Below, piece by piece: positions 702 through 31,154 of a DNA stretch of 34,100 nt. Every line of letters begins with the position of its first letter. Within the stretch, counting starts at the first letter, position 1. This stretch comes from Thermodesulfovibrionales bacterium. Its GTDB lineage: Bacteria; Nitrospirota; Thermodesulfovibrionia; Thermodesulfovibrionales; UBA9159. Under the pieces are notes generated by a model. That model was not told the origin of the DNA. It searched no databases and saw only the letters and a program-made list of their open reading frames with translations. The translations under genes were made by a program, and so were the position numbers. The stretch covers positions 1 through 34,100 of the forward strand of contig JBKBUA010000009.1 of assembly GCA_046290845.1 (NCBI GenBank), read 5' to 3'.

Positions 702-742
702 TTTTTCACCTCCTTTCTATTGGAAAATTCATTCTTAATACA

Positions 743-758
743 CGCAAAAATTGTGCCA
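743..758 (-). promoter_or_regulatory. sigma54 (-24/-12) promoter upstream of the CBS gene
   Basis: The minus strand reads TGGCACAATTTTTGCG, with GG and GC at canonical spacing (TGGCAC-N5-TTGC). The GC lies ~43 nt upstream of the ATG at 701, immediately downstream of a sigma54 activator gene. Confidence 0.7.
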
Positions 759-872
759 ACCTAAAAATTCTTGACACTATGTAAACATATTGAAATTTTA
801 AGAAATTCTTAAAAGCAAATGTGGGCAGGCTAAAAAGGTAGTGTCTAACTATAAGACAATAAAGTCTAAATG

Positions 873-2348: not shown

Positions 2349-2355
2349 TGCAAAT

Positions 2356-4870: not shown

Positions 4871-4886
4871 ATTAAATTATATAACA

Positions 4887-4895
4887 TGCTATAAT
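4887..4895 (+). promoter_or_regulatory. Extended -10 element (TGcTATAAT) upstream of leuS
   Basis: TGCTATAAT at 4887-4895, ~36 nt before the leuS ATG. The RBS GAGGAGG follows at 4922-4928. No good -35 was seen. Confidence 0.45.
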
Positions 4896-4930
4896 ATCAA
4901 ATCTCTTAATCATGTCGTATCGAGGAGGTT

Positions 4931-11561: not shown

Positions 11562-11601
11562 TTATAAACCTCCAGTTGAATTTAACTTTAAACTTTTAAT
11601 C

Positions 11602-11624
11602 CAGAACTTTTAACAAAAGTTCTG
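11602..11624 (-). other. 10-bp perfect hairpin spanning the pilS stop codon (intercistronic structure between pilS and pilR)
   Basis: CAGAACTTTT(11602-11611)/AAAAGTTCTG(11615-11624) with a 3-nt loop. There is no clear T-tract afterwards on the minus strand. Confidence 0.5.
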
Positions 11625-13262: not shown

Positions 13263-14451
13263 CCATCTTGAATATGGGTAAATAGAGAGAAACTACTATA
13301 AAACCAACGGTGCTCCCGAGAAAGACCATTAATAACGGTTCTAACATAGCTGTTAAGTTAGAGACTGCTGCGTCAACCTCGTCATCGTAAAAGTCTGCTA
13401 TCTTGCCGAGCATGGCGTCTAAAGCACCAGTAGATTCACCAACAGCTATCATATGGGTAACCATTGGAGGGAAGACCTTTGCCTTTGAAAGCGGCTCTGC
13501 CAGCGTCTTACCCTCAGCCACAGCCTTCCTCACATCCATAACAGAGTATTCGATGACCTTGTTTCCTGCTGTTTTTGCTGTTATATCAAGGCCATCGAGG
13601 ATCGGAACACCACTGCTTATAAGGGTTCCGAGCGTCCTGGTGAATTTAGCAACCGCAACCTTGTTAAGAATCATGCCAAAGATCGGGAGTTTTAAAAGGA
13701 TAGCATCCGTTGCCCTTTTACCATTTTCGGTCCGTCTGATTTGAGTTATGGCTACACTCATACCAACGATAAGCCCGAAGATAAGTAATCCGCCAATACC
13801 ACCAATAAAATTGCTAATAGATATTATAATCCTTGTAGGAAGAGGAAGAGTCCCACCGAGAGAGGCAAACATCTTCGAAAAAGTCGGGACAACAAAGATC
13901 ATTATTATAGCGAGAACAGTAACTGCCACGCCTGTCACAACAGCAGGATAAATCATTGCTCCCTTGACCTTCTTCTTCAATTTCATTGCCTTTTCTATAT
14001 ATGCTGCGAGCCTGTTCAATATGGTATCGAGGATACCTCCTGCCTCACCTGCCGCAACCATGTTCACATAAAGTTCTGAAAATACTCTCGGATGTTTCCT
14101 CAATGCATCCGCATAGGTAGAGCCTGCCTCAACATCTGATTTTACAGTAGAAAGCGTTTTTGCAAGATTTTTATTCTCTACCTGTGTTGAGAGTATCTCG
14201 AGGGCCTGAACGAGGGGCAAACCAGCGTCTATCATTGTTGCAAACTGCCTCGTAAAAACAACTATATCCTTGTCCTTAACCTTTCCGCCAAAACCAAATA
14301 CCTTTTTTACCTTTTTCTCGGTAATGACCGTTGGGGTTATGTTTCGCCTTCTTAAAATTGCTATTACTTCTTCCTTTGAAGCGGCCACTACCTCTCCTGA
14401 TTCAATAGTTCCTCTCGGATTCTTACCCGACCATTGAAAGGTCATCGGCAT
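13246..14451 (-). CDS. pilC: Type IV pilus assembly platform protein PilC (GspF family)
   Basis: 401 aa with two T2SF repeats (FTRQFATMIDAGLPL..., FTRTLGTLISSGVPIL...) and three TM segments. Confidence 0.92.
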   Translation of the reverse strand: MPMTFQWSGKNPRGTIESGEVVAASKEEVIAILRRRNITPTVITEKKVKKVFGFGGKVKDKDIVVFTRQFATMIDAGLPLVQALEILSTQVENKNLAKTLSTVKSDVEAGSTYADALRKHPRVFSELYVNMVAAGEAGGILDTILNRLAAYIEKAMKLKKKVKGAMIYPAVVTGVAVTVLAIIMIFVVPTFSKMFASLGGTLPLPTRIIISISNFIGGIGGLLIFGLIVGMSVAITQIRRTENGKRATDAILLKLPIFGMILNKVAVAKFTRTLGTLISSGVPILDGLDITAKTAGNKVIEYSVMDVRKAVAEGKTLAEPLSKAKVFPPMVTHMIAVGESTGALDAMLGKIADFYDDEVDAAVSNLTAMLEPLLMVFLGSTVGFIVVSLYLPIFKMGALIK

Positions 14452-14452
14452 T

Positions 14453-15544
14453 TTATCCCCTCCCTCTAATAGATGTATTAGATGCCCTCTGAATCATTGT
14501 TATGAGTTCTTCAGGTACCATTGATCTCCCAATGGCATCCTCATAAGAAATAAGCCCCTTTGTATATAACTCTAAAAGAGATTGATTCATCGTCTGCATA
14601 CCCGATCTTGCCTGACCTGTCTGCATTATTGAGTATATCTGATGAATCTTGTCCTCTCTTATAAGGTTTCGAACAGCAGGATTCGGAATAAGTATTTCTA
14701 CTGCAAGTACCCTTCCCTGCCCGGTCTTCTTTGGAATCAGTTGCTGAGAGATGATACCCTCGAGGACAAAGGAAAGTTGCACCCTTATCTGTTCCTGCTG
14801 ATGCGATGGAAATACATCTATTATCCTGTTTATTGTCTGGACTGCAGAATTTGTGTGAAGAGTAGCCAGAGTAAGATGACCTGTTTCTGAGACAGTAAGG
14901 GCAGCTTCGATAGTCTCAAGGTCCCTCATCTCACCTATCAATACCACATCAGGGTCCTGTCTGAGGACATACTTCAGGGCTGCCTTAAAAGAGGTCGTGT
15001 CAGCATTCACCTCCCTCTGGTTTATTAATGATTTTTTATGCCCATGGAGGTATTCAATAGGATCCTCTATAGTTATGATATGATCATATCTTTCCTCATT
15101 GATCCGGTCCACCATCGCCGCAAGTGTGGTAGATTTCCCGCTTCCTGTAGGACCTGTAACAACGATCAACCCCCTCGGTTTTTTAACGAGTTCATTTATT
15201 ATCTCAGGTAGCCCAAGTTCATTAAAGGTCTTAATACCAAAAGGGATGGTCCTGAAGGCACCAGCCACAGCACCCCTCTGCATAAAGATATTAGCCCTGA
15301 ATCTGCTCAACCCCTTAATCCCGAAGGAGAGGTCCAGTTCACTATTCTCCTCAAACCTGTGCTTCTGCGCATCCGTCAATATACTGTAACAGAGGTTCTT
15401 TGTATCTGTGGGTGTTAATGGAGGATGATCGATTGGTATTAATTTGCCATCTATCCTCAGCCGTGGCGGGCTTCCCGTTGTCACATGAAGGTCAGAAGCA
15501 CCTCTTTCAATCATCTGCTTTAAAAGGTCATAAAGTGTAGCCAT
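14453..15544 (-). CDS. pilT: Twitching motility ATPase PilT
   Basis: 363 aa. Shows ASDLHV, Walker A GPTGSGKST, the Asp box, Walker B VVLIGEMRD, the His box ETGHLTLATLHT, and the AIRNLIRE-like motif AVRNLIRE typical of PilT. Confidence 0.93.
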   Translation of the reverse strand: MATLYDLLKQMIERGASDLHVTTGSPPRLRIDGKLIPIDHPPLTPTDTKNLCYSILTDAQKHRFEENSELDLSFGIKGLSRFRANIFMQRGAVAGAFRTIPFGIKTFNELGLPEIINELVKKPRGLIVVTGPTGSGKSTTLAAMVDRINEERYDHIITIEDPIEYLHGHKKSLINQREVNADTTSFKAALKYVLRQDPDVVLIGEMRDLETIEAALTVSETGHLTLATLHTNSAVQTINRIIDVFPSHQQEQIRVQLSFVLEGIISQQLIPKKTGQGRVLAVEILIPNPAVRNLIREDKIHQIYSIMQTGQARSGMQTMNQSLLELYTKGLISYEDAIGRSMVPEELITMIQRASNTSIRGRG

Positions 15545-15587
15545 TTATTCTCCTTTGATATAAACAATTGATATGAACAATACCCTT

Positions 15588-17393
15588 TTAATCTCCAAAA
15601 GTAACCCTTAATACCTCCTCAATCGAGGTGATACCTTCCTTTACCTTTGTGAGTCCGCTCATTCTCAGGGTTTTCATTCCAAGCCTTATAGCGGTCTTCT
15701 TAATCTCATTAGCAGAGGCACCCTCAAGAATCAACTCCCTTATCTCATCACTTATAGGCATAACCTCATAAAGGGCAATCCTTCCTTTATAACCTGTATT
15801 ATTGCAGGCTGAGCAACCCTTGCCTCTGTAACACTTGATTGTGTTTGCCTCTTCCTCAGAGAACCCGATCTTTATTAGTGTCTGAGGTGATACCTTCTCC
15901 TCCTCCTTACACTGAAGACATATCTTCCTGGCCAGTCTTTGAGCAAGGATTAGAATTACGGATGATGAGACGAGAAATGGCTCTATTCCCATGTTAAGTA
16001 ACCTGCTAACAGTACTTGGTGCATCATTTGTATGTAGTGTACTAAGAACGAGATGCCCTGTTAGAGCAGCCTTAACCGCTATCTCTGCCGTCTCAAAATC
16101 TCTTATCTCGCCGACCATTATAATATCAGGGTCCTGCCTGAGGAATGACCTGAGTGCAGAAGCAAAGGTCAGACCGATCTCTTCCTTTACCTGAACCTGA
16201 TTAATCCCCATAAAGTTATACTCTACAGGATCCTCAGCGGTCATTATATTGGTTCCTGGTTTATTCAGATGGTTGAGGGCTGAGTAAAGGGTTGTTGTCT
16301 TACCACTTCCTGTAGGACCCGTGACAAGGACCATTCCATAAGGCTTCTCGATGGCATCCATGAAGTCATCGAGTTGCTTTTTCTCAAAACCAAGCTTTGT
16401 GAGGTCTATCTGAAGATTTGACTTATCGAGTATCCTCAAAACCGTCTTTTCTCCAAAGAGTGTGGGAAGGGTAGATACACGAAAGTCTATCTCCCTGTTC
16501 CTGCCCAGTTTGAGTTTAATCCTTCCATCCTGGGGTAGCCTTCTTTCTGCTATGTCCAGCTTGGCCATTATCTTTATCCTCGATGTTAGCGCATTCTTTA
16601 TCTTCGTTGGCAAACTCATGGTTGTATGCATAACTCCATCAACCCTGTATCTGACCCTGAGAGAATTCTCATAGGGTTCAATATGAATATCGCTCGCACC
16701 TGCCTTAATAGCATTTATGAAGATCCCATTAACGAGCTTTACAATAGGTGCCTCTACCTCCTTTATGACCTCTGAATCCTCTCTCTCCTCAACTATATCA
16801 ATCGTGTCGAGGGCACTACCGACTATCTTGTCAAATTCCTCAACATCAACCGTCGGCGCCTCTTCGATTGTGATCGTTGATGAATTCTCAGCATCTTCAT
16901 CAGAGAGCGTATAATCCTTGGCCTGAATTATCTGGGAGGTAGTCTTCGATTGGACAGCAACATCTCCACCCCTCGAATAATGTGTATTAATAGCATTCAT
17001 TATTGAAGTCTCTGACGAGACCACAACCTCAACATTATAGCCTGTCATGAACTTCACATCATCAATAGCAAATACATTCGATGGGTCTGCCATGGCAATA
17101 GTTAATGTAGCCCCAACCCTCGCAATGGGAATAATAAGGTATTTTCTTGCCATTTCATATGGTATAAGCTTTATTACAGAGGCGTCTATCTTATGATCAG
17201 ACAGGTTTATGGCTGGAACACCATATTGTTTGCTCAAAAAGGTAACAAGTTTCTCCTCGGTAATATATCCGAGTTTTACAAGATTAGTTCCGAGTCTTCC
17301 ACCTTCTTTTTTTTGGAGATTGAGTGCCTGTTTTAACTGTTCCTCAGATATTATATTCGAGTTAATCAGTATCTGACCAAGTTTTGCAGCCAT
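15588..17393 (-). CDS. pilB: Type IV pilus assembly ATPase PilB (GspE family)
   Basis: 601 aa with an N-terminal T2SSE_N/MshEN-like domain, Walker A GPTGSGKTT, Walker B IIMVGEIRD, and a tetracysteine zinc motif (CLQC...CSAC). Confidence 0.92.
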   Translation of the reverse strand: MAAKLGQILINSNIISEEQLKQALNLQKKEGGRLGTNLVKLGYITEEKLVTFLSKQYGVPAINLSDHKIDASVIKLIPYEMARKYLIIPIARVGATLTIAMADPSNVFAIDDVKFMTGYNVEVVVSSETSIMNAINTHYSRGGDVAVQSKTTSQIIQAKDYTLSDEDAENSSTITIEEAPTVDVEEFDKIVGSALDTIDIVEEREDSEVIKEVEAPIVKLVNGIFINAIKAGASDIHIEPYENSLRVRYRVDGVMHTTMSLPTKIKNALTSRIKIMAKLDIAERRLPQDGRIKLKLGRNREIDFRVSTLPTLFGEKTVLRILDKSNLQIDLTKLGFEKKQLDDFMDAIEKPYGMVLVTGPTGSGKTTTLYSALNHLNKPGTNIMTAEDPVEYNFMGINQVQVKEEIGLTFASALRSFLRQDPDIIMVGEIRDFETAEIAVKAALTGHLVLSTLHTNDAPSTVSRLLNMGIEPFLVSSSVILILAQRLARKICLQCKEEEKVSPQTLIKIGFSEEEANTIKCYRGKGCSACNNTGYKGRIALYEVMPISDEIRELILEGASANEIKKTAIRLGMKTLRMSGLTKVKEGITSIEEVLRVTFGD

Positions 17394-19293: not shown

Positions 19294-19457
19294 ATGAGGC
19301 AGGCACAATTCAAAACCTTTTATAATGCGATTGGACATTAAATGTGATGCCACAAGCAGAATTGTACCTGTGGTGCCGTTCAATCTAAACCGCCTTATGA
19401 TACGAAATGCTGCTATCGGTATCGCAAATAAAAGGTTTTTCATCATGCCTGCCTCAT
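19294..19457. mobile_element. MITE-like 164-bp element with ~38-bp imperfect terminal inverted repeats (or a long structured RNA)
   Basis: ATGAGGCAGGCA(19294-19305) and AAAACCTTTTAT(19312-19323) are perfect reverse complements of TGCCTGCCTCAT(19446-19457) and ATAAAAGGTTTT(19428-19439). TGCGAT/ATCGCA extends the pairing. No ORF with an RBS lies inside. Confidence 0.5.
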
Positions 19458-19541
19458 AGAAATTGGTTGTTTTATGCAATGTTTATCTATAAGATAAAAC
19501 CATTGAGAAAATTAATCAATTGTTTAAGGTAAACTTTTAAG

Positions 19542-19961
19542 ATGAAGATATTATTAAACAAATTAGTACAAACATCACTCAAAAATAGCCTCCACACTAT
19601 TTTTAACAAATCTTTCGGGTTAATTACCTTTTTATCACTTTCTGTTAATTTAAATGTGGTTTCTCTCGCTTCAGCAGAACAGAACTGCCCTGATTGCCCG
19701 AGGTGGCAAGAAATTGCGCCCTATGGAGATTATTGTCCAGGTTCTCGACGAGGATGGTATGGAGCAAGAAAACAGGTCTTAACCCTTAGGGAGGCCGAGA
19801 TAATCCTTACGGAATACTTTTCCAGGTATGGAGACATGAAGGTAGTAAACATTCAGGAAAAAAAGCGATTCTTTATAGCAGAGATAAGAGATAAAAACGA
19901 TTCCATTGTTGATATTGTTATACTCGATAAAAGGACAGGAAGGATAAGGTCTATTTATTGA
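19542..19961 (+). CDS. Secreted Cys-rich protein with PepSY-like C-terminal domain (hypothetical)
   Basis: A hydrophobic signal-like segment ends in ASA-EQ. Next comes CPDCP...CPG, then a ~70-aa beta-rich tail (KVVNIQEKKRFFIAEIRDKNDSIVDIVILDKRTGRI) of PepSY style. No clear SD. Confidence 0.5.
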   Translation: MKILLNKLVQTSLKNSLHTIFNKSFGLITFLSLSVNLNVVSLASAEQNCPDCPRWQEIAPYGDYCPGSRRGWYGARKQVLTLREAEIILTEYFSRYGDMKVVNIQEKKRFFIAEIRDKNDSIVDIVILDKRTGRIRSIY

Positions 19962-20126
19962 GTATCAGTATTGTCTGGTTTGATCTTTTAGACTTCCTTC
20001 AACAAGCTATAGCCGTACCAATGCTGTAGCTACATAAACGCCGCAAGTATGAATCCAGAGGACTAAAGAACTAAATTTCCGTTTATACAGGATGACGAAT
20101 TAGAGGTATTTTAGGTGAAACAATTT

Positions 20127-20150
20127 TGTAATAAATGAAACATAAATGTA
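20127..20150 (+). promoter_or_regulatory. Candidate upstream activator sequence (TGT-N10-ACA) of the nifH promoter
   Basis: TGTAATAAATGAAACATAAATGTA lies 90 nt upstream of the -24 element and is 19/24 identical to 30164-30187 upstream of the second sigma54 promoter. Confidence 0.45.
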
Positions 20151-20173
20151 TGCAATAAAGGATAATTGGTTAA

Positions 20174-21091
<918 letters not shown>

Positions 21092-21101
21092 GAGGATAAC
21101 T

Positions 21102-21419
21102 ATGCAGATGATAAGGGCAATAGTAAGACCTGAGAAGGCAGACAGTGTTGTTAGGGCCTTGGATGAGGCAGGATTTGTCTCTATGACGAAATTCGATGTC
21201 TTTGGAAGGGGCAAACAGAAAGGATTAACAGTTGGTGGGGTCCATTATGATGAACTACCAAAGGTGATGTTTTTGGTTGTGGTTGATGATGACAGTGCCG
21301 AAGCAGCGGTAGACACTATTATCGACGCAGCAAAGACCGGAAATTTCGGGGACGGTAAGATATTCATAAGTCCTGTCCAGAAATCCTATACCATCAGCAC
21401 AGGAAAGGAGTCCCTATGA
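21102..21419 (+). CDS. nifI1: PII-family nitrogenase regulator NifI1
   Basis: 105-aa GlnB-like protein ([10 protein letters not shown]...[10 protein letters not shown]) immediately after nifH. SD AGGAGGA. Confidence 0.9.
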
Positions 21420-21778
21420 TGAAAGACATAATCGCCATTATCAGGATGAATAAGTTTCAGGAGACAAAAAGGGTTCTTGAGGATATGGGTTTTCCTGCCT
21501 TTACTGTTATGAAGGTAATGGGCAGGGGAAGGCAGAGGGGCTATCTCCATGAGTTTACGCATCCCCTTCCTGTTGACAAGGAACCAGACATAAAAAGATT
21601 TATCCCAAAGAGGATGATAATGCTGACTGTAAGGGATTCTGAAGTGGAGAAGGTTGTAGATGCCATTATAAGAACAAACAAGACAGGCAACCCTGGTGAC
21701 GGAAAGATATTTGTGAACGATGTCACGGGTGCCGTCCGGATAAGGACAGGCGATAAGGGAGAAAAGGCCATCCTTTAA
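21416..21778 (+). CDS. nifI2: PII-family nitrogenase regulator NifI2
   Basis: 120-aa GlnB-like protein with an extended T-loop ([23 protein letters not shown]) and [10 protein letters not shown]. The ATGA start/stop overlaps nifI1. Confidence 0.9.
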
Positions 21779-21792
21779 CATGGAGGAATAAA

Positions 21793-23373
21793 ATGAAAAA
21801 CATAATCGAGGAAAGAGAAGAAGTCCGCAAAAAGATACTGGAAGGCTATCCGAGAAAGGTGGCAAGGGAAAGGGAGAAGCATATCATCGTCCTTGACAAG
21901 TCAAAGGAGCAGAAGATAGAGGCAAATGCCATTACAATTCCTGGAATCATATCTATGAGGGGCTGCTGTTATGCCGGGACAAAGGGCGTGGTCTTTGGCC
22001 CTATAAAGGATATGGTGCATATCGTTCACGGGCCGATCGGCTGTTCCTATTATACATGGGGAACGAGGAGAAATAAGGCAAGGACAGAACCAGGCGGCCA
22101 GAACTTTGTGGGCTATGCCTGCTCAACAGATATGATGGAAAAGGATATAGTCTTTGGCGGTGAGCAGAAGCTCCTTCAGGCAATAAGAGAGGCCTATAGG
22201 ATCTTCAAGCCAAAGGCAATAGGCATCTATGCTACATGCCCTGTAGGTCTCATCGGAGATGACCTTTATAAGGTGGCAAAACTGGCAGAAGAAGAACTTG
22301 GTGTAAAGGTCGTTCCCACGCACTGCGAGGGATACAAGGGTGTGAGCCAGTCTGCAGGCCACCACCTCGCCAGCAATACCCTTATGAAGTATGTGATAGG
22401 GACAGAGGAGTTGAAAGAGCCAGGGCCATTTGATATCAATATCTTTGGCGAGTATAACATAGGTGGAGATGCCTGGGAGATAAGGCGGATCTTCGAAAAG
22501 GTTGGATACAGGATAATCACATTCTTTACAGGCGATGCATCCTATGACAATGTAGCAGCAGCCCACAGGGCAAAGCTCAGCCTGCTTCACTGCCATAGAT
22601 CCATCAATTACACGAACAGGATGATGGAGGAAAAGTGGGGCGTTCCATGGCTTAAGGTCAATTTCTTTGGAGTAAAGGCCTTTATAAAGGCATTAAGGGA
22701 TACGGCTAAATTCTTTGATGACCCTGGCCTTTATGAAAGGACAGAAAAGGTTATCGAGGAGGAGATGTCGCAGGTCGAGCCTGTTCTTGAGAAATACAGA
22801 AAGAGGCTTGAGGGCAAGACCGCCATGCTCTTTGTCGGAGGCTCAAGGGCACACCACTTCCAGAGTCTGTTTGATGATATAGGAATGAAGAGCATAATGG
22901 CTGGTTATGAATTTGCACACAGGGATGATTATGAGGGCAGAAAGGTTATTCCCGAGATAAAGCACTCTGCAAGGAGCAAGGTGCTGGAAGACTTTACCTT
23001 TGAAAGGGAAGGGAAGTCTCAATGGGATGAAGAGTTTATAAGAAGAAAGAAAAAGGAACTTCCTGAGCTTATGGACTACGAGGGTATGATGCCCCACATG
23101 GAAAACGGCTCCTTTGTTATTGATGACACAAACCACTACGAGATAGAGATGCTTGTTAAGGAACTGAAGCCCGACATATTCTGCTCGGGTATCAAGGATA
23201 AGTATGTTGTTCATAAGCTTGGTGTGCCGTCAAAACAGCTCCACTCTTATGATTATGGTGGCCCTTATGTAGGATTCAGGGGAGCGATAAATTTTGCAAA
23301 GGACATAGATGCCATGGTTAATAACCCGGCATGGAAACTTATTACGCCACCATGGAGGTGCAAGGATGCTTGA
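21793..23373 (+). CDS. nifD: Nitrogenase MoFe protein alpha chain NifD (anaerobe type with internal insertion)
   Basis: 526 aa. P-cluster cysteines are in the CAYAG-like CYAGTKG, HGPIGC and TCPVGLIGDD motifs. FeMo-co ligands sit in LLHCHRS (Cys) and QLHSYDYGGPY (His). A ~50-aa insertion (ERE...MDYEGMMPHMENG) is typical of clostridial/methanogen-type NifD. Confidence 0.96.
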   Translation: MKNIIEEREEVRKKILEGYPRKVAREREKHIIVLDKSKEQKIEANAITIPGIISMRGCCYAGTKGVVFGPIKDMVHIVHGPIGCSYYTWGTRRNKARTEPGGQNFVGYACSTDMMEKDIVFGGEQKLLQAIREAYRIFKPKAIGIYATCPVGLIGDDLYKVAKLAEEELGVKVVPTHCEGYKGVSQSAGHHLASNTLMKYVIGTEELKEPGPFDINIFGEYNIGGDAWEIRRIFEKVGYRIITFFTGDASYDNVAAAHRAKLSLLHCHRSINYTNRMMEEKWGVPWLKVNFFGVKAFIKALRDTAKFFDDPGLYERTEKVIEEEMSQVEPVLEKYRKRLEGKTAMLFVGGSRAHHFQSLFDDIGMKSIMAGYEFAHRDDYEGRKVIPEIKHSARSKVLEDFTFEREGKSQWDEEFIRRKKKELPELMDYEGMMPHMENGSFVIDDTNHYEIEMLVKELKPDIFCSGIKDKYVVHKLGVPSKQLHSYDYGGPYVGFRGAINFAKDIDAMVNNPAWKLITPPWRCKDA

Positions 23374-24727
23374 TCATACACCTTTAGAGATAGTAGAAAG
23401 AGAAACGCTTACAATAAACCCCGCAAAGGTATGCCAGCCAATCGGGGCAACATGGGCAGCCCTCGGAATACATGGCTGTATGCCACTTGGGCACGGCTCT
23501 CAGGGTTGTGTCTCATACCTGAGGATGACACTCTCACGGCACCTGAAAGACCCTGCAATATCCGCAACCAGTTCCTTCAGCGAGGCATCAGCGGTATTCG
23601 GAGGAATCGGAAACCTGAGGCAGGCCATAAAGAACATTATCCATATATATAAACCTGAGGTGATAGCTGTCTATACCACCTGCGTTTCAGAGACCATCGG
23701 CGATGATGTAGCAGGCACAGTAAAGGCGATGAGAGAGGAAGGGGATATCCCTGATAATGTAAAGGTAATCCATGCCTCCACGCCGAGCTATGTAGGCTCT
23801 CATATAACAGGGTTCAGCAATATGACTGCATCTATGGCAACACAGCTCACAAAGAAAACAGAGCCGAATGGAAAGATCAATGTCATCCCCGGCTTTGTGA
23901 GCCCTGGCGATGTGAGGGAGATAAAGAGGCTACTCAGGGCAATAGGCATTGCCTCTATTGTGTTCCCTGATGTAACGGATGTCCTCGATACACCTATGAC
24001 AGGAAAGTATGAGCTCTATCCAAAGGGAGGAGTAAAGGTGGAGGAACTCATGGATACAGCGAATTCCTCATGCACAGTTGCATTGGGCAGATATGCCTCT
24101 ACGCAGGCAGCTCTTTTGCTCGAAAGGGATTTTAAAGTCCCGGCTGTTGCGCTGCCTCTACCTATGGGGATAAAGAACACAGACCTTTTTATGATGAAGC
24201 TCAAGGAGCTTTCGGGAAATGATATCCCCGAGGCTATAGAAGATGAAAGAGGAAGGCTTGTTGATATGCTCTGTGACCTCGACAGGCACTTTTATGACAA
24301 AAAGGTAGCCATAGCAGGCGATCCTGATACTGTTCTCGGTATGCTCTCGATTGTTACAGAACTGAATATGATCCCTGTTCATGTTGTAACAGGCACACCT
24401 GCAGAGGGGTTTGCAGATGAGGTGAAGAGGATAGCAGGAGAGGATGTGAACATAAAGGTGCCCGGGGACCTCTTCTATTTCCATCAGCTCATAAAGAACG
24501 AGCCTGTTGACCTGATCATCGGCAATACACACTGTAAGTATATTGCCAGGGCAGAGGATATTCCCCTTGTGAGGATAGGGTTCCCTATCACAGACAGGGG
24601 CTTCAACCATTACTTCCCTGAGACAGGATATGCAGGCACCATGAGGATAATAAAGATGATAGACGATGCCCTTCTGGAGAGATGGGACAGGGATGTGAAG
24701 GATGAGGACTTCGAGCTTATTATGTGA
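23366..24727 (+). CDS. nifK: Nitrogenase MoFe protein beta chain NifK (short N-terminus)
   Basis: 453 aa from ATG 23366, which overlaps the nifD stop by 8 nt. Shows CQPIGA, HGSQGCV and TTCVSETIGDD P-cluster motifs. Confidence 0.95.
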   Translation: MLDHTPLEIVERETLTINPAKVCQPIGATWAALGIHGCMPLGHGSQGCVSYLRMTLSRHLKDPAISATSSFSEASAVFGGIGNLRQAIKNIIHIYKPEVIAVYTTCVSETIGDDVAGTVKAMREEGDIPDNVKVIHASTPSYVGSHITGFSNMTASMATQLTKKTEPNGKINVIPGFVSPGDVREIKRLLRAIGIASIVFPDVTDVLDTPMTGKYELYPKGGVKVEELMDTANSSCTVALGRYASTQAALLLERDFKVPAVALPLPMGIKNTDLFMMKLKELSGNDIPEAIEDERGRLVDMLCDLDRHFYDKKVAIAGDPDTVLGMLSIVTELNMIPVHVVTGTPAEGFADEVKRIAGEDVNIKVPGDLFYFHQLIKNEPVDLIIGNTHCKYIARAEDIPLVRIGFPITDRGFNHYFPETGYAGTMRIIKMIDDALLERWDRDVKDEDFELIM

Positions 24728-24734
24728 GGAGAAA

Positions 24735-25544
24735 ATGCTATCTGAAAGATGCAGCATAATAGAGAGGCATCCGTGCCTTTCAAAGGAGGCTGCCCATAAA
24801 TACGGCAGGATACACCTGCCTGTGGCGCCGAGGTGCAACATCAAATGCAGGTATTGCCTGAGGCGATTTGATTGCGCCAATGAATCGAGGCCTGGCAGGT
24901 CAAGCATGGTTTTGAGGCCCGAAGAGGCAATAGAGAGGCTAAGATGGTATCTGGAAAGGATAGAGGGTCTGAAGGTTGCGGCTGTTGCGGGCCCTGGTGA
25001 ACCCCTTGCTAATCAGCAGACATTTAATGTTATGGAGATGATACGGGATGAGTTCCCTGAACTCATCCTCTGTCTATCTACAAACGGACTACTGCTGACG
25101 GAGAGGATGCAGGATATTATTGACCTTGGTGTGGGAACACTTACGGTCACGCTCAATGCCATCGATCCTGAAATAGGGGCAAAGATATATTCGTATATCA
25201 ACTATAAGGGCAAGACATATATTGGAGCCGAGGCCGCAAGGATACTCCTTGATAATCAACTTGCAGGCATAGAGATGGCTGTAAAGGCAGGTATTGTTGT
25301 GAAGGCCAACACAATATATATGCCTGAGGTAAACGGCGATCATCTAAGTGATATTGCTGAATATCTTAAAGGGCTTGGAATATACCTGATGAATCTTATG
25401 CCCCTTATACCTCAGTCTGATTTTGCGGCACTCAGGCCTCCAACAGAGGTGGAACTGCATCAGGCAAGGGAAAGGCTCAAGGAGATTATTCCACAGATGA
25501 CGCATTGCAGGCAGTGCAGGGCAGATGCCTGCGGAAAGCTTTAA
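24735..25544 (+). CDS. nifB: FeMo-cofactor biosynthesis radical SAM protein NifB (radical-SAM domain only)
   Basis: Shows HPCLSKEA...RIHLPVAPRCNIKCRYC (CxxxCxxC) and the C-terminal HCRQCRADACG. At 269 aa it has no NifX-like C-terminal domain. ATG 24735 is preceded by GAGGAG. Confidence 0.9.
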   Translation: MLSERCSIIERHPCLSKEAAHKYGRIHLPVAPRCNIKCRYCLRRFDCANESRPGRSSMVLRPEEAIERLRWYLERIEGLKVAAVAGPGEPLANQQTFNVMEMIRDEFPELILCLSTNGLLLTERMQDIIDLGVGTLTVTLNAIDPEIGAKIYSYINYKGKTYIGAEAARILLDNQLAGIEMAVKAGIVVKANTIYMPEVNGDHLSDIAEYLKGLGIYLMNLMPLIPQSDFAALRPPTEVELHQARERLKEIIPQMTHCRQCRADACGKL

Positions 25545-25555
25545 GAGGTACAAAG

Positions 25556-28132
25556 GTGTTAACGAAATTAGATGGATTGCTTGATAGTGGCTGTGAAAGG
25601 GAGAAAAAAGAGAAGATCTGCCGTTCAAGAGGTGGAGAGTCATGCGCCTTTGACGGAGCGATGATAGTGCTCCAGCCCATAGCAGACGCTGCACATATCG
25701 TCCACGGCCCTATTGCGTGCTGCGGCAATTCGTGGGAGGGAAGAGGAACATTGTCATCAAAGGGCAGCCTTCACAGGATGGGTTTTACTACTGATATGAG
25801 CGAGATGGATATTATCTATGGTTCTGAAGACAAGCTCTATGATGCGATATTGCGCACATATGAATCAGTGAAGCCAAAGGCGATATTTGTCTATGCCACA
25901 TGTGTTAGCGGCTTGATAGGAGAAGACATTGAAGCTGTATGTAAAAAAGCTGAAGCGTCTCTGGGCATCCGGGTAATACCGGTGAACGCGCCGGGATTCG
26001 TCGGCCCTAAAAATCTCGGCAACAGGATAGCAGGAGAAGCGCTTCTGGATTATGTGATTGGAACAGGTAACCCCCCTCTGTCCCCCCTTAATGTAAGGGG
26101 GGATGAAAGGGGGGTTATCAACCTCATCGGTGAATACAATATAGCAGGCGATTTATGGCTTGTTGAGCCACTGTTGAAAGAGGCAGGAATAAGAATCCTG
26201 TCGAGGATTACAGGCGATTCTACATTTGAGGAGATAACATACGCGCATTATGCAAAACTGAATGTGGTTGTGTGTAGCCGTGCTTTGATAAATATTGCAA
26301 AGGAGATGGAAAGGAGATACGGCATTCCCTATATAGAGGTTTCTTTCTTTGGCAAGACCGAGATGTCAAAGGCGCTGAGATTGATAGGCTTAAACCTGAA
26401 GACTGAAGGCTCGACGGAATTTTTAACAGATAAAATTGCATCGATCATTGCGAGGGAAGAAAAAAAGCTTGAAGAAAACCTAAAGGCGTACGAGCATCTT
26501 AAAGGTAAGAAGGCTGTTCTTTATACCGGCGGTGTTAAGAGTTGGTCTTTTATTTCAGCGCTCATGGATCTGGGAATCGAGATTGTCGCAATAGGAACAA
26601 AAAAGAGCACCTTCGAAGATGAGGAGAAGATGAGGGAGATCCTCGGTGAGGATGCACCGCTGGTTGAAGATGTAACACCGAAGAATCTACTCAGGCTTTT
26701 GAAGGAGAAAAAGGCAGACATGCTTATTGCAGGAGGAAGGAACCAGTATCTTGCAATCAAGGAAGGGTATCCATTCGTTGATGTAAATCAGGAGAGGCAC
26801 AGGGCTTATGCTGGATATGAAGGATTGTTGAATTTAGCCGAACAGATAAGTAATGGCATGAGGTTTTATGGCGGTATGCGGAATGCAGATAACGCCCCTT
26901 CTGGTCCCCCTCTTAAGGTAAGAGGGGGAAGGGGGAGTTATGCCATCAATCCGTTGAAGCATTCTCAGTCAATAGGCGCAGCGATGGCATTTCAGGGAGT
27001 GCATAATGCCCTGCCGATTATTCACGGTGCTCAGGGTTGCACGTTCCTTGCGAAGGCTCTTCTGACAAAACATTTCAGAGAGCCTATCGCTCTGGCAAGC
27101 ACAAAACTATTCACCGAGAACGTGGTGATGGGAAGCGAAGAGAATATCGCCAATACTGTAAACGGCTTCATAGAGAAGAACAGACCGGATGTGATTGGTA
27201 TTCTCACATCAGGACTTTCAGAGGTGAAAGGCGATGATGTAGCGAGGGTAATAAAAGATTTAAAATCCAAAATTCAAGATTCAAGATGCGAGGTTGTCCA
27301 TGTCTCTACACCTGATTATGAAGGAGGGCTTGAGACAGGATATGCAAAGGCAGTGGAAGCACTACTGCAGTTTACAGTTCACGGTTCACGGTTCACAGAG
27401 AGGCAGATTAATGTTCTTGTCGGTTCCCATCTGACCCCTGCGGATTTTACTGAACTGAGGGACATAATCGAATCTTTCAGTTTAAAGCCCATAATACTTC
27501 CCGATCTTTCTGCGCTGGACGGCAGCAGACAGGGGTTTTCCTCGCTTGCCCTCAGCGGCACAAAAATAGATGAGATAAGGAATATGGGGTCATCCGGGTT
27601 TACCATTGCTATAGGCTCAAGCATGGAGTCTGCCGCAATGATTTTAAAAGAAAGGTTCGGCATAGAGTACAGGGTATTTGAAGGCATGTCAGGGCTTAAG
27701 GATACAGATATGCTCATGGAGGCACTTTCCATGTTGAGCGGAAAAGAGGTGCCCGCTAAATACGAGAGGCAGAGAAGGATTCTCATTGACGGTATGAGGG
27801 ATGCGCATTTTTATTACGGCAATAAAAGGATATGTCTTGCGCTCGAGCGTGACCTGTCACTCCAGATGTCGAGCTGGCTTGATGAGATGGGCGCTGAAAT
27901 TGAAATTGTCGATACGAATTCGGGAGACCTGTTTTCTATTCATGGTAATTTTGACCTGCTTATTTCGAATTCCCATGCAGAAGATACAGCAAAGAGGCTT
28001 GGTGTGCCGCTGTATCAGATGGGGTTTCCTGTTTATAAGATTTTAGGAAACAATCACAAGGTTACTATTGGATACAGGGGCACGCTCGGACTTATCAACG
28101 ATATTGGGAATCTGTTATCTGAACATAATTAG
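25556..28132 (+). CDS. nifEN: Fused nitrogenase cofactor scaffold NifE-NifN
   Basis: The N-half is NifE-like (CAFDGA, HGPIACCGNSWEGRG, YATCVSGLIGEDI, LIGEYNIAGD). The C-half is NifN-like (INPLKHSQSIGAAMAFQGV...IHGAQGCT, LTSGLSEVKGDD). It is a single open frame. The start is assigned to GTG 25556 after the nifB stop, but ATG 25505 would overlap nifB by 40 nt, so it is uncertain. Confidence 0.9.
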   Translation: MLTKLDGLLDSGCEREKKEKICRSRGGESCAFDGAMIVLQPIADAAHIVHGPIACCGNSWEGRGTLSSKGSLHRMGFTTDMSEMDIIYGSEDKLYDAILRTYESVKPKAIFVYATCVSGLIGEDIEAVCKKAEASLGIRVIPVNAPGFVGPKNLGNRIAGEALLDYVIGTGNPPLSPLNVRGDERGVINLIGEYNIAGDLWLVEPLLKEAGIRILSRITGDSTFEEITYAHYAKLNVVVCSRALINIAKEMERRYGIPYIEVSFFGKTEMSKALRLIGLNLKTEGSTEFLTDKIASIIAREEKKLEENLKAYEHLKGKKAVLYTGGVKSWSFISALMDLGIEIVAIGTKKSTFEDEEKMREILGEDAPLVEDVTPKNLLRLLKEKKADMLIAGGRNQYLAIKEGYPFVDVNQERHRAYAGYEGLLNLAEQISNGMRFYGGMRNADNAPSGPPLKVRGGRGSYAINPLKHSQSIGAAMAFQGVHNALPIIHGAQGCTFLAKALLTKHFREPIALASTKLFTENVVMGSEENIANTVNGFIEKNRPDVIGILTSGLSEVKGDDVARVIKDLKSKIQDSRCEVVHVSTPDYEGGLETGYAKAVEALLQFTVHGSRFTERQINVLVGSHLTPADFTELRDIIESFSLKPIILPDLSALDGSRQGFSSLALSGTKIDEIRNMGSSGFTIAIGSSMESAAMILKERFGIEYRVFEGMSGLKDTDMLMEALSMLSGKEVPAKYERQRRILIDGMRDAHFYYGNKRICLALERDLSLQMSSWLDEMGAEIEIVDTNSGDLFSIHGNFDLLISNSHAEDTAKRLGVPLYQMGFPVYKILGNNHKVTIGYRGTLGLINDIGNLLSEHN
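26068..26117. repeat. GC-rich palindromic element E1 embedded in frame in the NifE part of nifEN
   Basis: TAACCCCCC(26068-26076)/GGGGGGTTA(26109-26117) and TCCCCCCTTA(26081-26090)/TAAGGGGGGA(26094-26103) are perfect stems. It encodes NPPLSPLNVRGDERGV. Confidence 0.8.
26890..26940. repeat. GC-rich palindromic element E2, homologous to E1, forming the NifE-NifN linker
   Basis: TCCCCCTCTTA(26905-26915)/TAAGAGGGGGA(26919-26929) is a perfect 11-bp stem. The outer arms TAACGCCCCTT/AGGGGGAGTTA pair at 9/11. Same TAAC...GTTA ends as E1. It encodes NAPSGPPLKVRGGRGS. Confidence 0.8.
27255..27289. repeat. Heptanucleotide tandem repeat inside nifEN (AAGATTT AAAATCC AAAATTC AAGATTC AAGATGC)
   Basis: Five degenerate 7-nt units read directly. 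They encode ...DLKSKIQDSRC... in the NifN half. Confidence 0.65.
27370..27397. repeat. Heptanucleotide tandem repeat inside nifEN (GTTTACA GTTCACG GTTCACG GTTCACA)
   Basis: Four 7-nt units, the two central ones identical. They encode FTVHGSRFT in the NifN half. Confidence 0.75.
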
Positions 28133-28150
28133 ATGGAAGGAGGATTAGCT

Positions 28151-28546
28151 ATGAAAATAGCCTTTGCAACAACTGATGGAATCAATGTTGACGAGCATTT
28201 CGGCAGGGCAGGTATGTTCGCCATATACGAGCTTACAAATGACGGATACAGGTTTATTGAAATGAGGAAGTTTGCCGACGGCAGGGATTCGGCGGTGGAA
28301 AACACAAAAGCAATGGGGCATGTCCATGACGAAAAGGTAGAGGGCAAAGTAGATAAGCTCGCGGACTGCAAGATCATATATTCAACCGAAATAGGAGGTC
28401 CTTCTGCTGCCCGGCTTTCAAGAAAAGGGATTATGCCTGTAAAAGTGAAAGAGGTCGTTTCAATCGAGGAATCATTGCAAAAACTTATGGAGACCCTAAA
28501 AAAATCGCCGCCGCCTTGGCTGAAGAAAGCGATTGGTACCAATTAG
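28151..28546 (+). CDS. nifX: NifX/NafY-family dinitrogenase iron-molybdenum cofactor-binding protein
   Basis: Shows MKIAFATTDG..VDEHFGRA..F.IYE and ...LADCKIIYSTEIGGPSAARL, typical of the NifX/NifB-C-terminal fold. SD GGAGG lies 7 nt before ATG 28151. Confidence 0.85.
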   Translation: MKIAFATTDGINVDEHFGRAGMFAIYELTNDGYRFIEMRKFADGRDSAVENTKAMGHVHDEKVEGKVDKLADCKIIYSTEIGGPSAARLSRKGIMPVKVKEVVSIEESLQKLMETLKKSPPPWLKKAIGTN

Positions 28547-28601
28547 TAAGAATAGAGAGTGACCATTCTGGAGATCAGTAATGATATGATATACTTAGTT
28601 T

Positions 28602-29495
28602 ATGGAGAATCAGAGGATTGCTATTATAGAAAGCGCATTGAATCTGGCAAGCGAGACTAAAAGTCATAAAGTCCTTATCTTTCTCAATACAACCAAGGAC
28701 TGCCTGTGGTTTTTAAAATCAGAGCTTGCAACGAAAAAAGATGTTGTGCTTGTAATCCCAAAGACACTTAATATCCCAGAATCTGAATTCAAGGCCGCTG
28801 AAGTGGAGATAATAAGGAGTTGGGCAGGAAACCAGAGCAGATTCTCCCGCATTAAATATGCCTTTCTTCACGGAGTTCTGCAGAATGTAATCCGTACAGA
28901 CAGCAAGATTATCTGCGTCCTCGGACCATGGGGTAAGAGCCATCTCGATACAGTTACAGTACATGATCTTGCCCTTTCATGGAGCGAAGACTTTCCGTTC
29001 GATCCACAGCTTCTTGTCACACATAAGGCATTTAATATCATCATGGCTGTTATTGATATTGCACTGGATATCGGTGCACTCGGAAGAGAAGGCAAAGCTG
29101 TCGGCACAACATTCGTGATAGGTGATGCCGAAAATGTCCTCAAACTCTCTCATCAGGCTGTGTTTAATCCCTTTAAAGGATACCCCAAAAGCGAAAGGTT
29201 GATTACCCGTCCCGAGGTGGTGGAGAGCATAAAGGAACTCGCTAAACTGGATGGTGCCTTTGTTATTTCAGATGCGGGGGTTGTCGAGGCAGCTGGAAGA
29301 CACCTTGATGCCAGAAGTATTGTTACAAGGCAACTCAGAGGGCTGGGATCAAGGCACAGGGCTGCGGCAGGGATCACACGTATGACAAAAGCTGTTTCTG
29401 TTGTAGTCTCAGAAAGTACAGGAAGGGTTACCATCTTTGTAAAAGGGCGTATTATATCGACACTCGAACCTGTCATAAGCAGAAGATTGGTTTAG
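28602..29495 (+). CDS. Diadenylate cyclase (DAC/DisA_N domain) with N-terminal pyruvate-kinase-C-like domain (CdaZ/DacZ-like architecture)
   Basis: C-terminal DAC motifs LDGAFVISD, GLGSRHRAAAGIT and VVVSESTGRVTIF. The ~140-aa N-terminal alpha/beta domain contains HKVLIFLNTTKDC...VVLVIP...IICVLGPWG. Same strand as nifX, 55 nt downstream. Confidence 0.8.
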   Translation: MENQRIAIIESALNLASETKSHKVLIFLNTTKDCLWFLKSELATKKDVVLVIPKTLNIPESEFKAAEVEIIRSWAGNQSRFSRIKYAFLHGVLQNVIRTDSKIICVLGPWGKSHLDTVTVHDLALSWSEDFPFDPQLLVTHKAFNIIMAVIDIALDIGALGREGKAVGTTFVIGDAENVLKLSHQAVFNPFKGYPKSERLITRPEVVESIKELAKLDGAFVISDAGVVEAAGRHLDARSIVTRQLRGLGSRHRAAAGITRMTKAVSVVVSESTGRVTIFVKGRIISTLEPVISRRLV

Positions 29496-29496
29496 T

Positions 29497-29531
29497 AGGG
29501 GCAGGTTCCAAACCTGCCCTGTCTTTTGTAG
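29497..29531 (+). terminator. Intrinsic terminator closing the nif-dac transcription unit
   Basis: 9-bp stem GGGCAGGTT(29499-29507)/AACCTGCCC(29511-29519) with a 3-nt loop, followed by TGTCTTTTGTAG. It begins 2 nt after the stop at 29495. Confidence 0.7.
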
Positions 29532-29617
29532 ATTGATATATCATGCCAGAATCAACAAGGGCGGGTTTAGAACCCTTACAATATTCGTTAGAGCCATTCA
29601 AAGACGAGGACACAAAA

Positions 29618-29833
29618 TCACGAATTTAGTATGTCTTCTGCTGTAAAAAAAGATACTTTGCCTTTGCGCTCCTTTGTCTCAAATTTCTTAATCTCCTCCA
29701 GATCCATGATATTTTCATACAACTCGAGCAACGATTTTTTAATTAATGACGATTTATCCTCATGAAAATAATCTGCCAGTTTTTTCAAAATCTTTTCTTC
29801 ATCCTTATTTAATCTAACGGATATTATCCCCAT
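29618..29833 (-). CDS. Ribbon-helix-helix (RelB/ParD/CopG-like) antitoxin
   Basis: 71 aa. The N-terminal beta-strand plus helices pattern GIISVRLNKDEEKILKKLADYF...SSLIKKSLLELY is present. Its ATG overlaps the 3' end of the upstream RelE/ParE-like reading frame. Confidence 0.7.
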   Translation of the reverse strand: MGIISVRLNKDEEKILKKLADYFHEDKSSLIKKSLLELYENIMDLEEIKKFETKERKGKVSFFTAEDILNS

Positions 29834-30093
29834 TTATCATACACCTCCTCTCTCTTGGCAATTGATATAACATAATAGTTATTGTCTTCTATATAGAATA
29901 TAGCTCTATATTTTCCTTTTCTGACGCGATAGTATGTCCTCTTTTCAGATGCCTTTAATTTTTAAATATCAAAAAGGCTGAGATCATGGGTTGTATCTAA
30001 AGCAATAAAAACATTATTAAACCTTTTAAAAATATCTTTTGGCAAAGTACCTTTAGTAACTGATTTTTTAACGGTCTCTTCATAAACAACCAT
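29824..30093 (-). pseudogene. RelE/ParE-family toxin gene interrupted by an in-frame TAA (codon 44)
   Basis: My hand translation of the minus strand gives MVVYEETVKKSVTKGTLPKDIFKRFNNVFIALDTTHDLSLFDI*KLKASEKRTYYRVRKGKYRAIFYIEDNNYYVISIAKREEVYDKWG*. The C-terminal YRVRKGKYRAIFYI...V.I..I.KREEVY is the RelE/ParE signature. The internal stop is at 29962-29964. It is absent from the ORF track because both pieces are under 60 aa. Confidence 0.7.
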
Positions 30094-30163
30094 ATATATG
30101 TTTACAATGTATTACAACATTTTGTCAAGATACTGTAAAGTTGCAACGGCTTAACTACAAAAA

Positions 30164-30187
30164 TGTTATAAACCATACACAAATGTA
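30164..30187 (+). promoter_or_regulatory. Candidate upstream activator sequence (TGT-N10-ACA) of the hesA-modE-modABC promoter
   Basis: TGTTATAAACCATACACAAATGTA lies 78 nt upstream of the -24 element and is 19/24 identical to the nifH upstream element. Confidence 0.45.
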
Positions 30188-30241
30188 AAGGGGATACAAC
30201 GGGTGATTAGAAATTCCTTATGTATTTCATGTGGTTATAAC

Positions 30242-30257
30242 TGGCATATCTGTTGCT
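30242..30257 (+). promoter_or_regulatory. sigma54 (-24/-12) promoter of the hesA-modE-modABC operon
   Basis: TGGCATATCTGTTGCT has the same spacing as the nifH promoter and identical flanks (cTGGCAT..CTGTTGCTTAT). The GC is ~44 nt before GTG 30300. Confidence 0.75.
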
Positions 30258-30299
30258 TATTCTCTCTGATGAATATTAGAAGGGGACAGAGAGGGACCT

Positions 30300-31154
30300 G
30301 TGAGATGGTTAACTGATATAGAACTTGAGCGTTACCGCAGGCAGCTGATGCTCGAAGGCTTTACAATTGAGCATCAGCAGAGACTGAAGGATTCCACTGC
30401 GCTTATCGCGGGGATAGGCGGGCTTGGAGGGACTGCTGCCATTTATCTTGCGGTTGCGGGAATAGGGAAAATGATTTTTGCACATTATGGAAATCTTACG
30501 CTCTCAAACATGAACAGACAGATATTGATGAGGCATGACTGGATAGGCAAAAGCAGGGTTATACAGGCGATGAAGACCATTGAAGATATAAATCCCGATG
30601 TTGAGGTTGAGATATATAATGAAAGGACATCAGAGGATAATATTGATAAATTACTCGATGGAGTTGGGATAGCTATTTCTGCGCGTCCTAATTTCAATGA
30701 AAGGCGGGTATTAAACAACGCCTGTGTAAAAAAGGGCATTCCAATGGTTGAGGCAGCTATGAATGGTATGGAAGGTTATATTTTCAATGTAGTTCCCGGC
30801 ATAACACCATGCCTTAACTGTCTCTATCCGGATGATAACCCCGAATGGCAGGAGCTTGGATTCCCGGTTCTTGGCGCTGTCTCCGGAATGCTCGGATGCC
30901 TGATGGCCATCGAGGCAATCAAGCTGCTCACAGGTTTTGGCAAACCGATGCTTTCAAAGATGCTTGTGTTTAATACTATTGACATGGAGTTCAGGAAGCT
31001 CAATATCTACAGAGACATAGACTGCGAAGTGTGCAGTGATACTATGAAAAATAAAAAATCCTTGACAACCGTTATTCCTAATGATATATTACGACATGAA
31101 AAAGAAATGTCCTGCAGAAAAGCACAAACCAAAACATGCCCATCGTCCGTGTGA
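30300..31154 (+). CDS. ThiF/HesA/MoeB-family adenylyltransferase
   Basis: Shows YRRQL..EGF..EHQQRL, the Rossmann motif AGIGGLGG, and two CxxC pairs (CLNC, CEVC). GTG start. A ~38-aa tail after CEVC overlaps the next ORF. Confidence 0.85.
   Translation: MRWLTDIELERYRRQLMLEGFTIEHQQRLKDSTALIAGIGGLGGTAAIYLAVAGIGKMIFAHYGNLTLSNMNRQILMRHDWIGKSRVIQAMKTIEDINPDVEVEIYNERTSEDNIDKLLDGVGIAISARPNFNERRVLNNACVKKGIPMVEAAMNGMEGYIFNVVPGITPCLNCLYPDDNPEWQELGFPVLGAVSGMLGCLMAIEAIKLLTGFGKPMLSKMLVFNTIDMEFRKLNIYRDIDCEVCSDTMKNKKSLTTVIPNDILRHEKEMSCRKAQTKTCPSSV

Follow-up and report, generated by a model that had tools for sequence, protein, structure and literature searches.

The gene examined here, dac, lies on contig JBKBUA010000009.1 (assembly GCA_046290845.1) of a Thermodesulfovibrionales bacterium, in a stretch of 34,100 nucleotides (nt) that we refer to as the window, where it follows nifX as the last same-strand gene of a nitrogen fixation (nif) block. 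The reading that we favour, and consider reasonably probable, is that dac is a housekeeping diadenylate cyclase of the DacZ/CdaZ type which has its own promoter with a short leader and was recently moved behind nifX, any link to nitrogen running through general physiology. A recent rearrangement in this Thermodesulfovibrionia lineage (closest named relative Dissulfurispira sp.) would have put dac 55 nt behind nifX. Basal dac expression from the gene's own promoter would then not depend on nitrogen status, read-through from the nifH sigma54 promoter could supply extra dac transcript during diazotrophy, and the nitrogen link would most likely arise through the general physiology of cyclic di-AMP (c-di-AMP), namely potassium, glutamate/glutamine and osmolyte balance, and not through a nif-specific circuit. 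Most of what is known of this second messenger comes from Gram-positive bacteria, cyanobacteria and archaea, where potassium and osmolyte balance is under its control and glutamate/glutamine metabolism is touched as well. The features on which the argument turns are the following.

28602-29495, + strand: dac open reading frame (ORF), ATG at 28602, TAG at 29495, 297 amino acids (aa)
28602-29012, + strand: putative N-terminal sensor domain of dac (residues 1 to ~137) with a pyruvate-kinase C-terminal-like fold (DacZ_P), from Pfam, AlphaFold2 (AF2) and Foldseek-type matches to the PDB
29082-29450, + strand: catalytic DAC domain of dac (residues 161-283), from Pfam, the motifs DGA/RHR/SESTG, alignment and Foldseek
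28547-28601, + strand: nifX-dac spacer of 55 nt, unstructured, with neither a Shine-Dalgarno sequence nor a sigma54 site
28582-28590, + strand: extended -10 promoter-like element TGATATGAT (TGnTATGAT), ending 11 nt before the dac ATG
29498-29530, + strand: intrinsic terminator with a 10-bp stem (6 GC) and a 3-nt loop, then GTCTTTTGTA

The initial annotation had assigned the dac product to the DAC family from its DGA, RHR and SESTG motifs, and this assignment was borne out by profile searches. Pfam DAC (PF02457) aligned to residues 161-283 with an E-value of 8.9e-23 and 80.6 bits (cut-off 27), and the same profile matched all of the 42 orthologs. The motifs themselves (D217-G218-A219, R251-H252-R253 and S270-E-S-T-G274) are invariant or nearly so across the 42-ortholog alignment, with T273 present at a level of at least 90%. 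A profile of the 42 orthologs found CdaA, CdaM and DisA in the PDB, and Foldseek returned CdaM, DacA, CdaA and DisA as best matches of the full-length AF2 model (E 5e-7 to 2e-5, probability 1.0; predicted local distance difference test, pLDDT, 85.4). The NCBIfam model NF041371, an equivalog model for haloarchaeal DacZ, aligned to residues 81-290 with an E-value of 1e-36 at 126.7 bits against a cut-off of 430, which marks the protein as related to the haloarchaeal one and not as its equivalog.

At the N-terminus, the Pfam model DacZ_P (PF21755) reached 20.4 bits on the window protein, under its gathering cut-off of 27.4, and matched 37 of the 42 orthologs at E <= 0.01 (best 1.3e-7). An AF2 model of residues 1-137 had a pLDDT of 86.9, and its top 50 matches in the PDB were all pyruvate kinases (query-normalised template modelling score 0.52-0.59, E ~2e-5, ~127 aligned columns), in agreement with the pyruvate-kinase C-terminal-like fold, as in DacZ/CdaZ, that had been proposed from the letters. 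The region is strongly conserved in the ortholog alignment, for example at W74-x-G-N-Q-x-R-F-S-R-I-K-Y-A-F, and the domain is probably a soluble sensor that binds a metabolite.

Because the DAC motifs and fold, the pyruvate-kinase C-terminal-like N-terminal fold and the match to the DacZ model coincide, we place the protein among the bacterial members of the DacZ/CdaZ class, as a diadenylate cyclase predicted to condense two ATP into c-di-AMP. It would be an additional bacterial member of an already known class, to which DacZ of Haloferax volcanii (HVO_1660) and CdaZ (also DacY) of Methanocaldococcus jannaschii belong. Unlike these archaeal proteins it comes from a bacterium (Nitrospirota), and whereas haloarchaeal dacZ forms an operon with mscS (PMC6741144), dac stands behind nifX. 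The extension of the DacZ-type family to some bacteria was described by Braun et al. 2019 (PMC6741144). With CdaA/DacA, CdaM and DisA the window protein has the catalytic fold and motifs in common (structural matches 8ofj for CdaM, 6gyw for DacA, 7y0d/9y9y for DisA) at a catalytic-domain identity of only ~20-25%, but it has neither the transmembrane N-terminus of CdaA and CdaM nor the DNA-binding helix-hairpin-helix domain of DisA. A degenerate or receptor-type DAC protein, or an enzyme with another product, would be in keeping with the large distance from the DacZ equivalog cut-off, and the literature searched contained no characterised bacterial member of this DacZ-type clade. We nevertheless find such an inactive protein scarcely credible, given intact catalytic motifs that hardly vary among the orthologs, a confidently matched DAC fold and the demonstrated cyclase activity of the archaeal relatives DacZ and CdaZ (PMC6741144; PMC10249747).

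To place dac in its family, relatives are denoted L001-L133 (loci) and P0004-P0009 (homologs) below, and identities refer to the window dac protein unless stated otherwise. A homology search with the dac protein gave 2205 relatives; the best 120 of them are almost all 294-300 aa long (usually 297 aa), with identities of 65-91%, and the named ones among these are mostly Nitrospirota, Nitrospiraceae or Dissulfurispira. When one genome was scanned for each GTDB species, 76 dac loci emerged, mostly from Thermodesulfovibrionia and Desulfobulbales with a few Spirochaetes and two Methanolinea, and no assembly appeared twice. This breadth of homologs, together with the single occurrence per assembly, points to a single-copy and broadly conserved gene that is not specific to nif. 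Many of the loci have no nif gene within 10 kb, and in a neighbour-joining tree the window dac groups with Dissulfurispira-type sequences that are not linked to nif.

The neighbours of dac, compared by all-against-all clustering and inspection of representatives, lead in the same direction. In four homologs (P0004, 88%, Dissulfurispira sp.; P0005, 87%; P0008, 77%; P0009, 75%) dac is preceded by QueC-like, CCG, CxxCxxCC and TAL_FSA (or also DUF2007) genes, and no nif gene was found next to it. Six Dissulfurispiraceae (L022, L026, L033, L034, L040, L042) have the order xerC-hslV-hslU-rlpA-argB-dac, in which the gene for N-acetylglutamate kinase, a PII target in cyanobacteria, stands immediately before that of the cyclase. 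Of 64 species compared across the family, 42 have an upstream gene that shares the strand of dac, in 20 of them with a gap of at most 55 nt; since the partners differ, a position at the tail of an operon appears typical of dac, and the operon itself varies. Judged by these sequence relationships, dac is the lineage's ordinary, vertically inherited single-copy ortholog and not a conserved member of the nif operon.

A dac gene conserved after nifX in related nif clusters, for which the initial annotation had proposed a survey, was not what we found. The tandem arrangement of nifX and dac occurs in the window and on two short contigs only (L079 and L080, DAC 91% identical) and is thus limited to relatives of at least 91% identity, those at 75-88% being the nif-free homologs described above. 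In a reverse survey of 46 metagenome loci (L088-L133; NifX 63-81% identical, flanks up to 6 kb), dac was present in the flank of nifX in 0 of 46; these flanks reach no further than nifH or nifD, with the region upstream of nifH out of view, so a divergent nifH/dac layout could still occur in these contigs. The longer of the 46 loci read nifH-D-K-EN-X-I1-I2-B-thiF(-modAB), an order with which the fragments seen in the shorter ones agree. Because the gene order of the window (H-I1-I2-D-K-B-EN-X-dac-thiF) differs from the order in these loci (H-D-K-EN-X-I1-I2-B-thiF), its nif cluster appears rearranged and atypical, and it looks like a mosaic. As regards protein similarity, NifD of the window is only ~42% identical to those 46 loci, and NifEN and NifX are 60-81% identical. 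The GC profile was uninformative as an island signature, being even at ~0.39-0.49 across nif and its flanks. An insertion scar could not be defined by tblastx comparison with the Dissulfurispira sp. contig L077, in which only dac and ~50 nt upstream match.

Sequence conservation immediately before dac bears on the question of a promoter of its own. About 25 nt upstream of the ATG are kept between the window, where nifX lies upstream, and L077/L081, where DUF2007 lies upstream, and further out the similarity is gone; the homology break with non-nif relatives, at ~30-50 nt before the ATG, leaves the promoter-like element in place. No Shine-Dalgarno sequence follows the TGATATGAT box, and comparable boxes stand shortly before the start in many orthologs (for example TGTGGTATGAT, TGTCGTATTATAAT and GGTAGTATAC). 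The pattern TGnTAnnnT, ending 6-19 nt before the start, was present in 19 of 71 orthologs compared with 55 of 1067 other ORFs of the same loci (5%; Fisher p 1.8e-8). Because this -10 element is conserved across differing contexts and enriched in the family, we infer that dac probably has its own sigma70-type promoter, the leader being very short or missing altogether. Within the 55-nt gap, a sigma54 motif scan found no site and a consensus scan reported no sigma70 -35/-10 pair, so that the extended -10 element alone is convincing there.

The nif genes that precede dac, and the promoter from which they would be read, are arranged as follows.

20217-20231, + strand: sigma54-type promoter TGGCATGGCTGTTGC (TGGCAT-N5-TTGC), one mismatch to TGGCAC-N5-TTGC, 41 nt before the nifH ATG
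20273-21091, + strand: nifH, ATG at 20273 after a GGAGG ribosome-binding site (the listed ORF begins at TTG 20207)
21084-21419, + strand: nifI1, Pfam P-II E 1.5e-26
21416-21778, + strand: nifI2, Pfam P-II E 7.4e-25
21793-23373, + strand: nifD, from the ORF list and tblastn to relatives
23309-24727, + strand: nifK (ORF), from the ORF list and tblastn to relatives
24702-25544, + strand: short nifB, radical-SAM core only, 280 aa, NCBIfam nifB E 9e-93 over model positions 8-275 of 441
25505-28132, + strand: fused nifEN, 875 aa, NCBIfam bifunctional NifEN E 1e-298
28133-28546, + strand: nifX, NCBIfam nifX 127.3 bits (cut-off 112)

NifH of the window is 63-69% identical to its relatives by tblastn. 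The layout set out in the initial annotation was reproduced throughout: two PII-family genes stand between nifH and nifD, a sigma54 site with a single mismatch precedes nifH, and dac begins at 28602 on the same strand as nifX, whose stop lies at 28546, with no hairpin between them (the spacer RNA folds at -6.3 kcal/mol, z +1.1). The same applies to the terminator. The hairpin at 29498-29520 starts three bases past the dac stop, has a folding energy of -19.1 kcal/mol (z -3.9) and runs into TCTTTTGT; no other terminator match of 19400-31000 ranks above it, the remaining + strand matches inside nif being weak. As the total terminator count in this interval equals the shuffle expectation, the terminator after dac is taken to be the only strong one of the region. 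Co-transcription of dac from the nifH sigma54 promoter, which had been deduced from this layout, stands in part. With no terminator before dac and a strong one after it, read-through from nifH would be possible; but a conserved promoter-like -10 box, overlooked by the initial annotation, lies in the gap, and this is a sequence pointer toward an independent promoter, an outcome that the initial annotation had itself named as speaking against its proposal. A promoter of its own could be combined with extra read-through from nif.

The same layout invites a more specific explanation, in which dac belongs functionally to the nif operon and c-di-AMP is sensed by NifI1/NifI2 or another nif component, giving a second-messenger input to nitrogenase switch-off. 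The shared strand, the 55-nt gap and a terminator only past dac all suit it, as do L050 and L072, where dac lies near nif clusters that contain nifI1 and nifI2. PII-like c-di-AMP receptors do exist, as the initial annotation had noted: PstA/DarA is one (PMC4316997) and SbtB another (PMC8654305). These receptors and NifI1/NifI2 have the PII superfamily fold in common, but the NifI proteins match canonical P-II (PF00543) alone at E <= 0.01, which leaves them outside the PstA/DarA family, and no sequence feature suggesting c-di-AMP binding was found in either of them. Canonical PII proteins bind ATP/ADP and 2-oxoglutarate. Moreover, in the clade of L001 and L002 nifD directly follows nifH, with no nifI between them, although dac adjoins nifH. 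The restriction of the tandem to the closest relatives, a single-copy dac with many loci far from nif, and the conserved element resembling its own promoter likewise argue against such a circuit, which we consider highly improbable. The literature searched contained no report of c-di-AMP binding by NifI and no link of c-di-AMP or a diadenylate cyclase to nitrogenase, nifH or NifI beyond incidental co-mentions, consistent with the earlier impression that the connection had not been described; between c-di-AMP and NifI it is purely conjectural.

Broader ties between c-di-AMP and nitrogen metabolism have been reported. In B. subtilis, c-di-AMP levels change with potassium and with the source of nitrogen, glutamate versus ammonium or glutamine (PMC7857571). 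In a dacA mutant of Synechocystis the Gln/Glu ratio is disturbed, arginine is low, N-acetylglutamate kinase is slightly decreased and NtcA is reduced (PMC12454622). Those links are physiological and involve CdaA-type cyclases and no nitrogenase, whereas the evidence around the window comes from anaerobic diazotrophs and is one of gene neighbourhood only. Neighbours such as glnK-amtB, argB and nif would fit a broad c-di-AMP/nitrogen physiology better than a NifI-specific circuit.

Several observations weigh against dac as a plain housekeeping gene with its own promoter. The strict motif is present in only 27% of orthologs, the -10 element comes with no recognisable -35, and some orthologs (L083, L085) have no box and overlap, or are translationally coupled to, the upstream gene. 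The source genome is viewed over 34 kb only, and a second cyclase (CdaA or DisA) elsewhere would be outside this view. Further, nif genes stand within 10 kb of dac in three or four arrangements from two phyla (the window with L079/L080; L001/L002/L023/L045/L086; L072; L050/L069), and the nif-linked dac genes form three or four independent groups in the neighbour-joining tree. In L001, L002, L023, L045 and L086/L087, dac and nifH diverge from an intergenic stretch of 327-747 bp, and modE/thiF/nifB or modABC lie on the other side of dac. In L072 it is convergent with thiF-nifB-nifI2-nifI1-nifX-nifEN-nifK-nifD-nifH. Of the two Desulfobulbales, L050 has nifH-I1-I2-D-K on one side of dac and nifE-N-B-X on the other, with dac itself on the opposite strand, and L069, a partial locus, has nifB and nifK to one side of dac. 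In about ten species (L003, L004, L005, L023, L036, L037, L038, L043, L044, L045) glnK-amtB is within 10 kb of dac, a call that denotes matches of 34-49% identity to the NifI queries beside AmtB-like clusters; in L005 and L023 such a match is only 64-88 bp from dac.

We roughly estimate a chance of ~1% per 3-Mb nif-bearing genome that a gene picked at random has nif within 10 kb, so that fewer than 1 of the 76 species would be expected to show such proximity compared with 7 observed. Allowing for shared ancestry, this corresponds to 3-4 events compared with ~0.3-0.4 expected, of the order of 10^-2 to 10^-3, which is suggestive and not decisive. By this rough estimate the recurrence exceeds chance, which hints at a selected linkage more specific than general physiology. 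What the data suggest is a recurrent minority co-localisation of dac and nitrogen genes in two phyla, a pattern not found in the literature searched.

The recurrence also bears on the simplest alternative, a neutral juxtaposition in which the rearrangement that scrambled nif left dac between nifX and thiF with only its own promoter and a position of no meaning. Such an origin would account for a nif order unlike that of all 46 related loci, for the toxin-antitoxin remnant (DUF6290) directly after dac, for a homology break that spares the promoter-like element, and for neighbours that are highly variable between species. It sits less easily with the proximity to nif, mod and thiF that recurs in several Thermodesulfovibrionia arrangements and independently in Desulfobulbales, with the repeated glnK-amtB and argB neighbours, and with the excess of 7 in 76 species over the rough 1% expectation; with no terminator between nifX and dac, some read-through would moreover be hard to avoid. 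We regard pure neutrality as a real possibility, albeit an unlikely one.

Beyond the housekeeping reading lies a bolder one, which we hold to be doubtful: that DacZ-type c-di-AMP signalling forms part of nitrogen control in anaerobic diazotrophs of the Thermodesulfovibrionia and Desulfobulbales, the placement of dac (near nif, glnK-amtB and argB) being selected and the messenger acting on NifI1/NifI2, GlnK or the handling of ammonium, potassium and glutamate during N2 fixation, with nif read-through in the window raising c-di-AMP synthesis. If it is true, the c-di-AMP link would add a second-messenger layer to the post-translational control of nitrogenase in environmentally important anaerobic diazotrophs, and the poorly understood bacterial DacZ-type cyclases would gain a physiological role. 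The specific operon of the window would seem mostly an accident of a recent rearrangement, and the wider neighbourhood pattern (nif, glnK-amtB, argB) offers a testable lead.

Two further details were seen at the nif-linked and glnK-linked loci. Directly upstream of dac, on the opposite strand, L005, L023 and L045 carry an ORF of 140-149 aa, which separates dac from nifH (two of the three species) or from ntrC-like genes; from its sequence we presume a likeness to gamma-glutamyl cyclotransferase or AIG2. L086, one of the loci with divergent dac and nifH, has an IS21-type element (rve, Mu-transposase C, IstB; 4515-6979) inserted between nifD and nifK.

Downstream of dac, the window continues with these features.

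29618-29833, - strand: DUF6290 antitoxin-like ORF, 71 aa, convergent with dac, a neighbour kept in the 91% relatives
30242-30256, + strand: second sigma54-type site TGGCATATCTGTTGC, upstream of thiF, a ModE-like gene, modA and modB

Two similar GC-rich, hairpin-forming sequences follow dac ~40 nt apart, at 29499-29519 (GGGCAGGTTCCAAACCTGCCC) and 29559-29577 (GGGCGGGTTTAGAACCC), and the pair may be a short repeated element; the second hairpin is weak (-8.1 kcal/mol, z 0.05). In the 91% relatives L079 and L080 the DUF6290 ORF is followed by an 89-aa partner gene, which seems broken in the window, where only a 43-aa ORF is present (29618-30100, - strand). This region may be a decaying toxin-antitoxin pair at a rearrangement junction. 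On account of the sigma54-type site at 30242-30256, the thiF-modE-modAB genes for molybdate uptake seem to have a sigma54 promoter of their own. No RNA element, a c-di-AMP (ydaO-type) riboswitch included, reached the gathering score when the window was scanned with Rfam.

Elsewhere in the window, on the - strand of 324-3000, an exact sigma54 consensus (TGGCACAATTTTTGC, 744-758) lies upstream of a CBS-domain gene (701-324), which has a sigma54 activator (873-2348) and another gene with a CBS pair (2356-3000) as neighbours. Since the receptor modules known for c-di-AMP include CBS domains, the CBS-domain proteins of the window are candidate targets of this messenger. The - strand of 10197-17393 holds a type IV pilus and regulation cluster with a PilR-like sigma54 response regulator, a PilS-like kinase, PilC and a PilT-like ATPase, together with a PilB ATPase that has an MshEN domain, a module that binds c-di-GMP.

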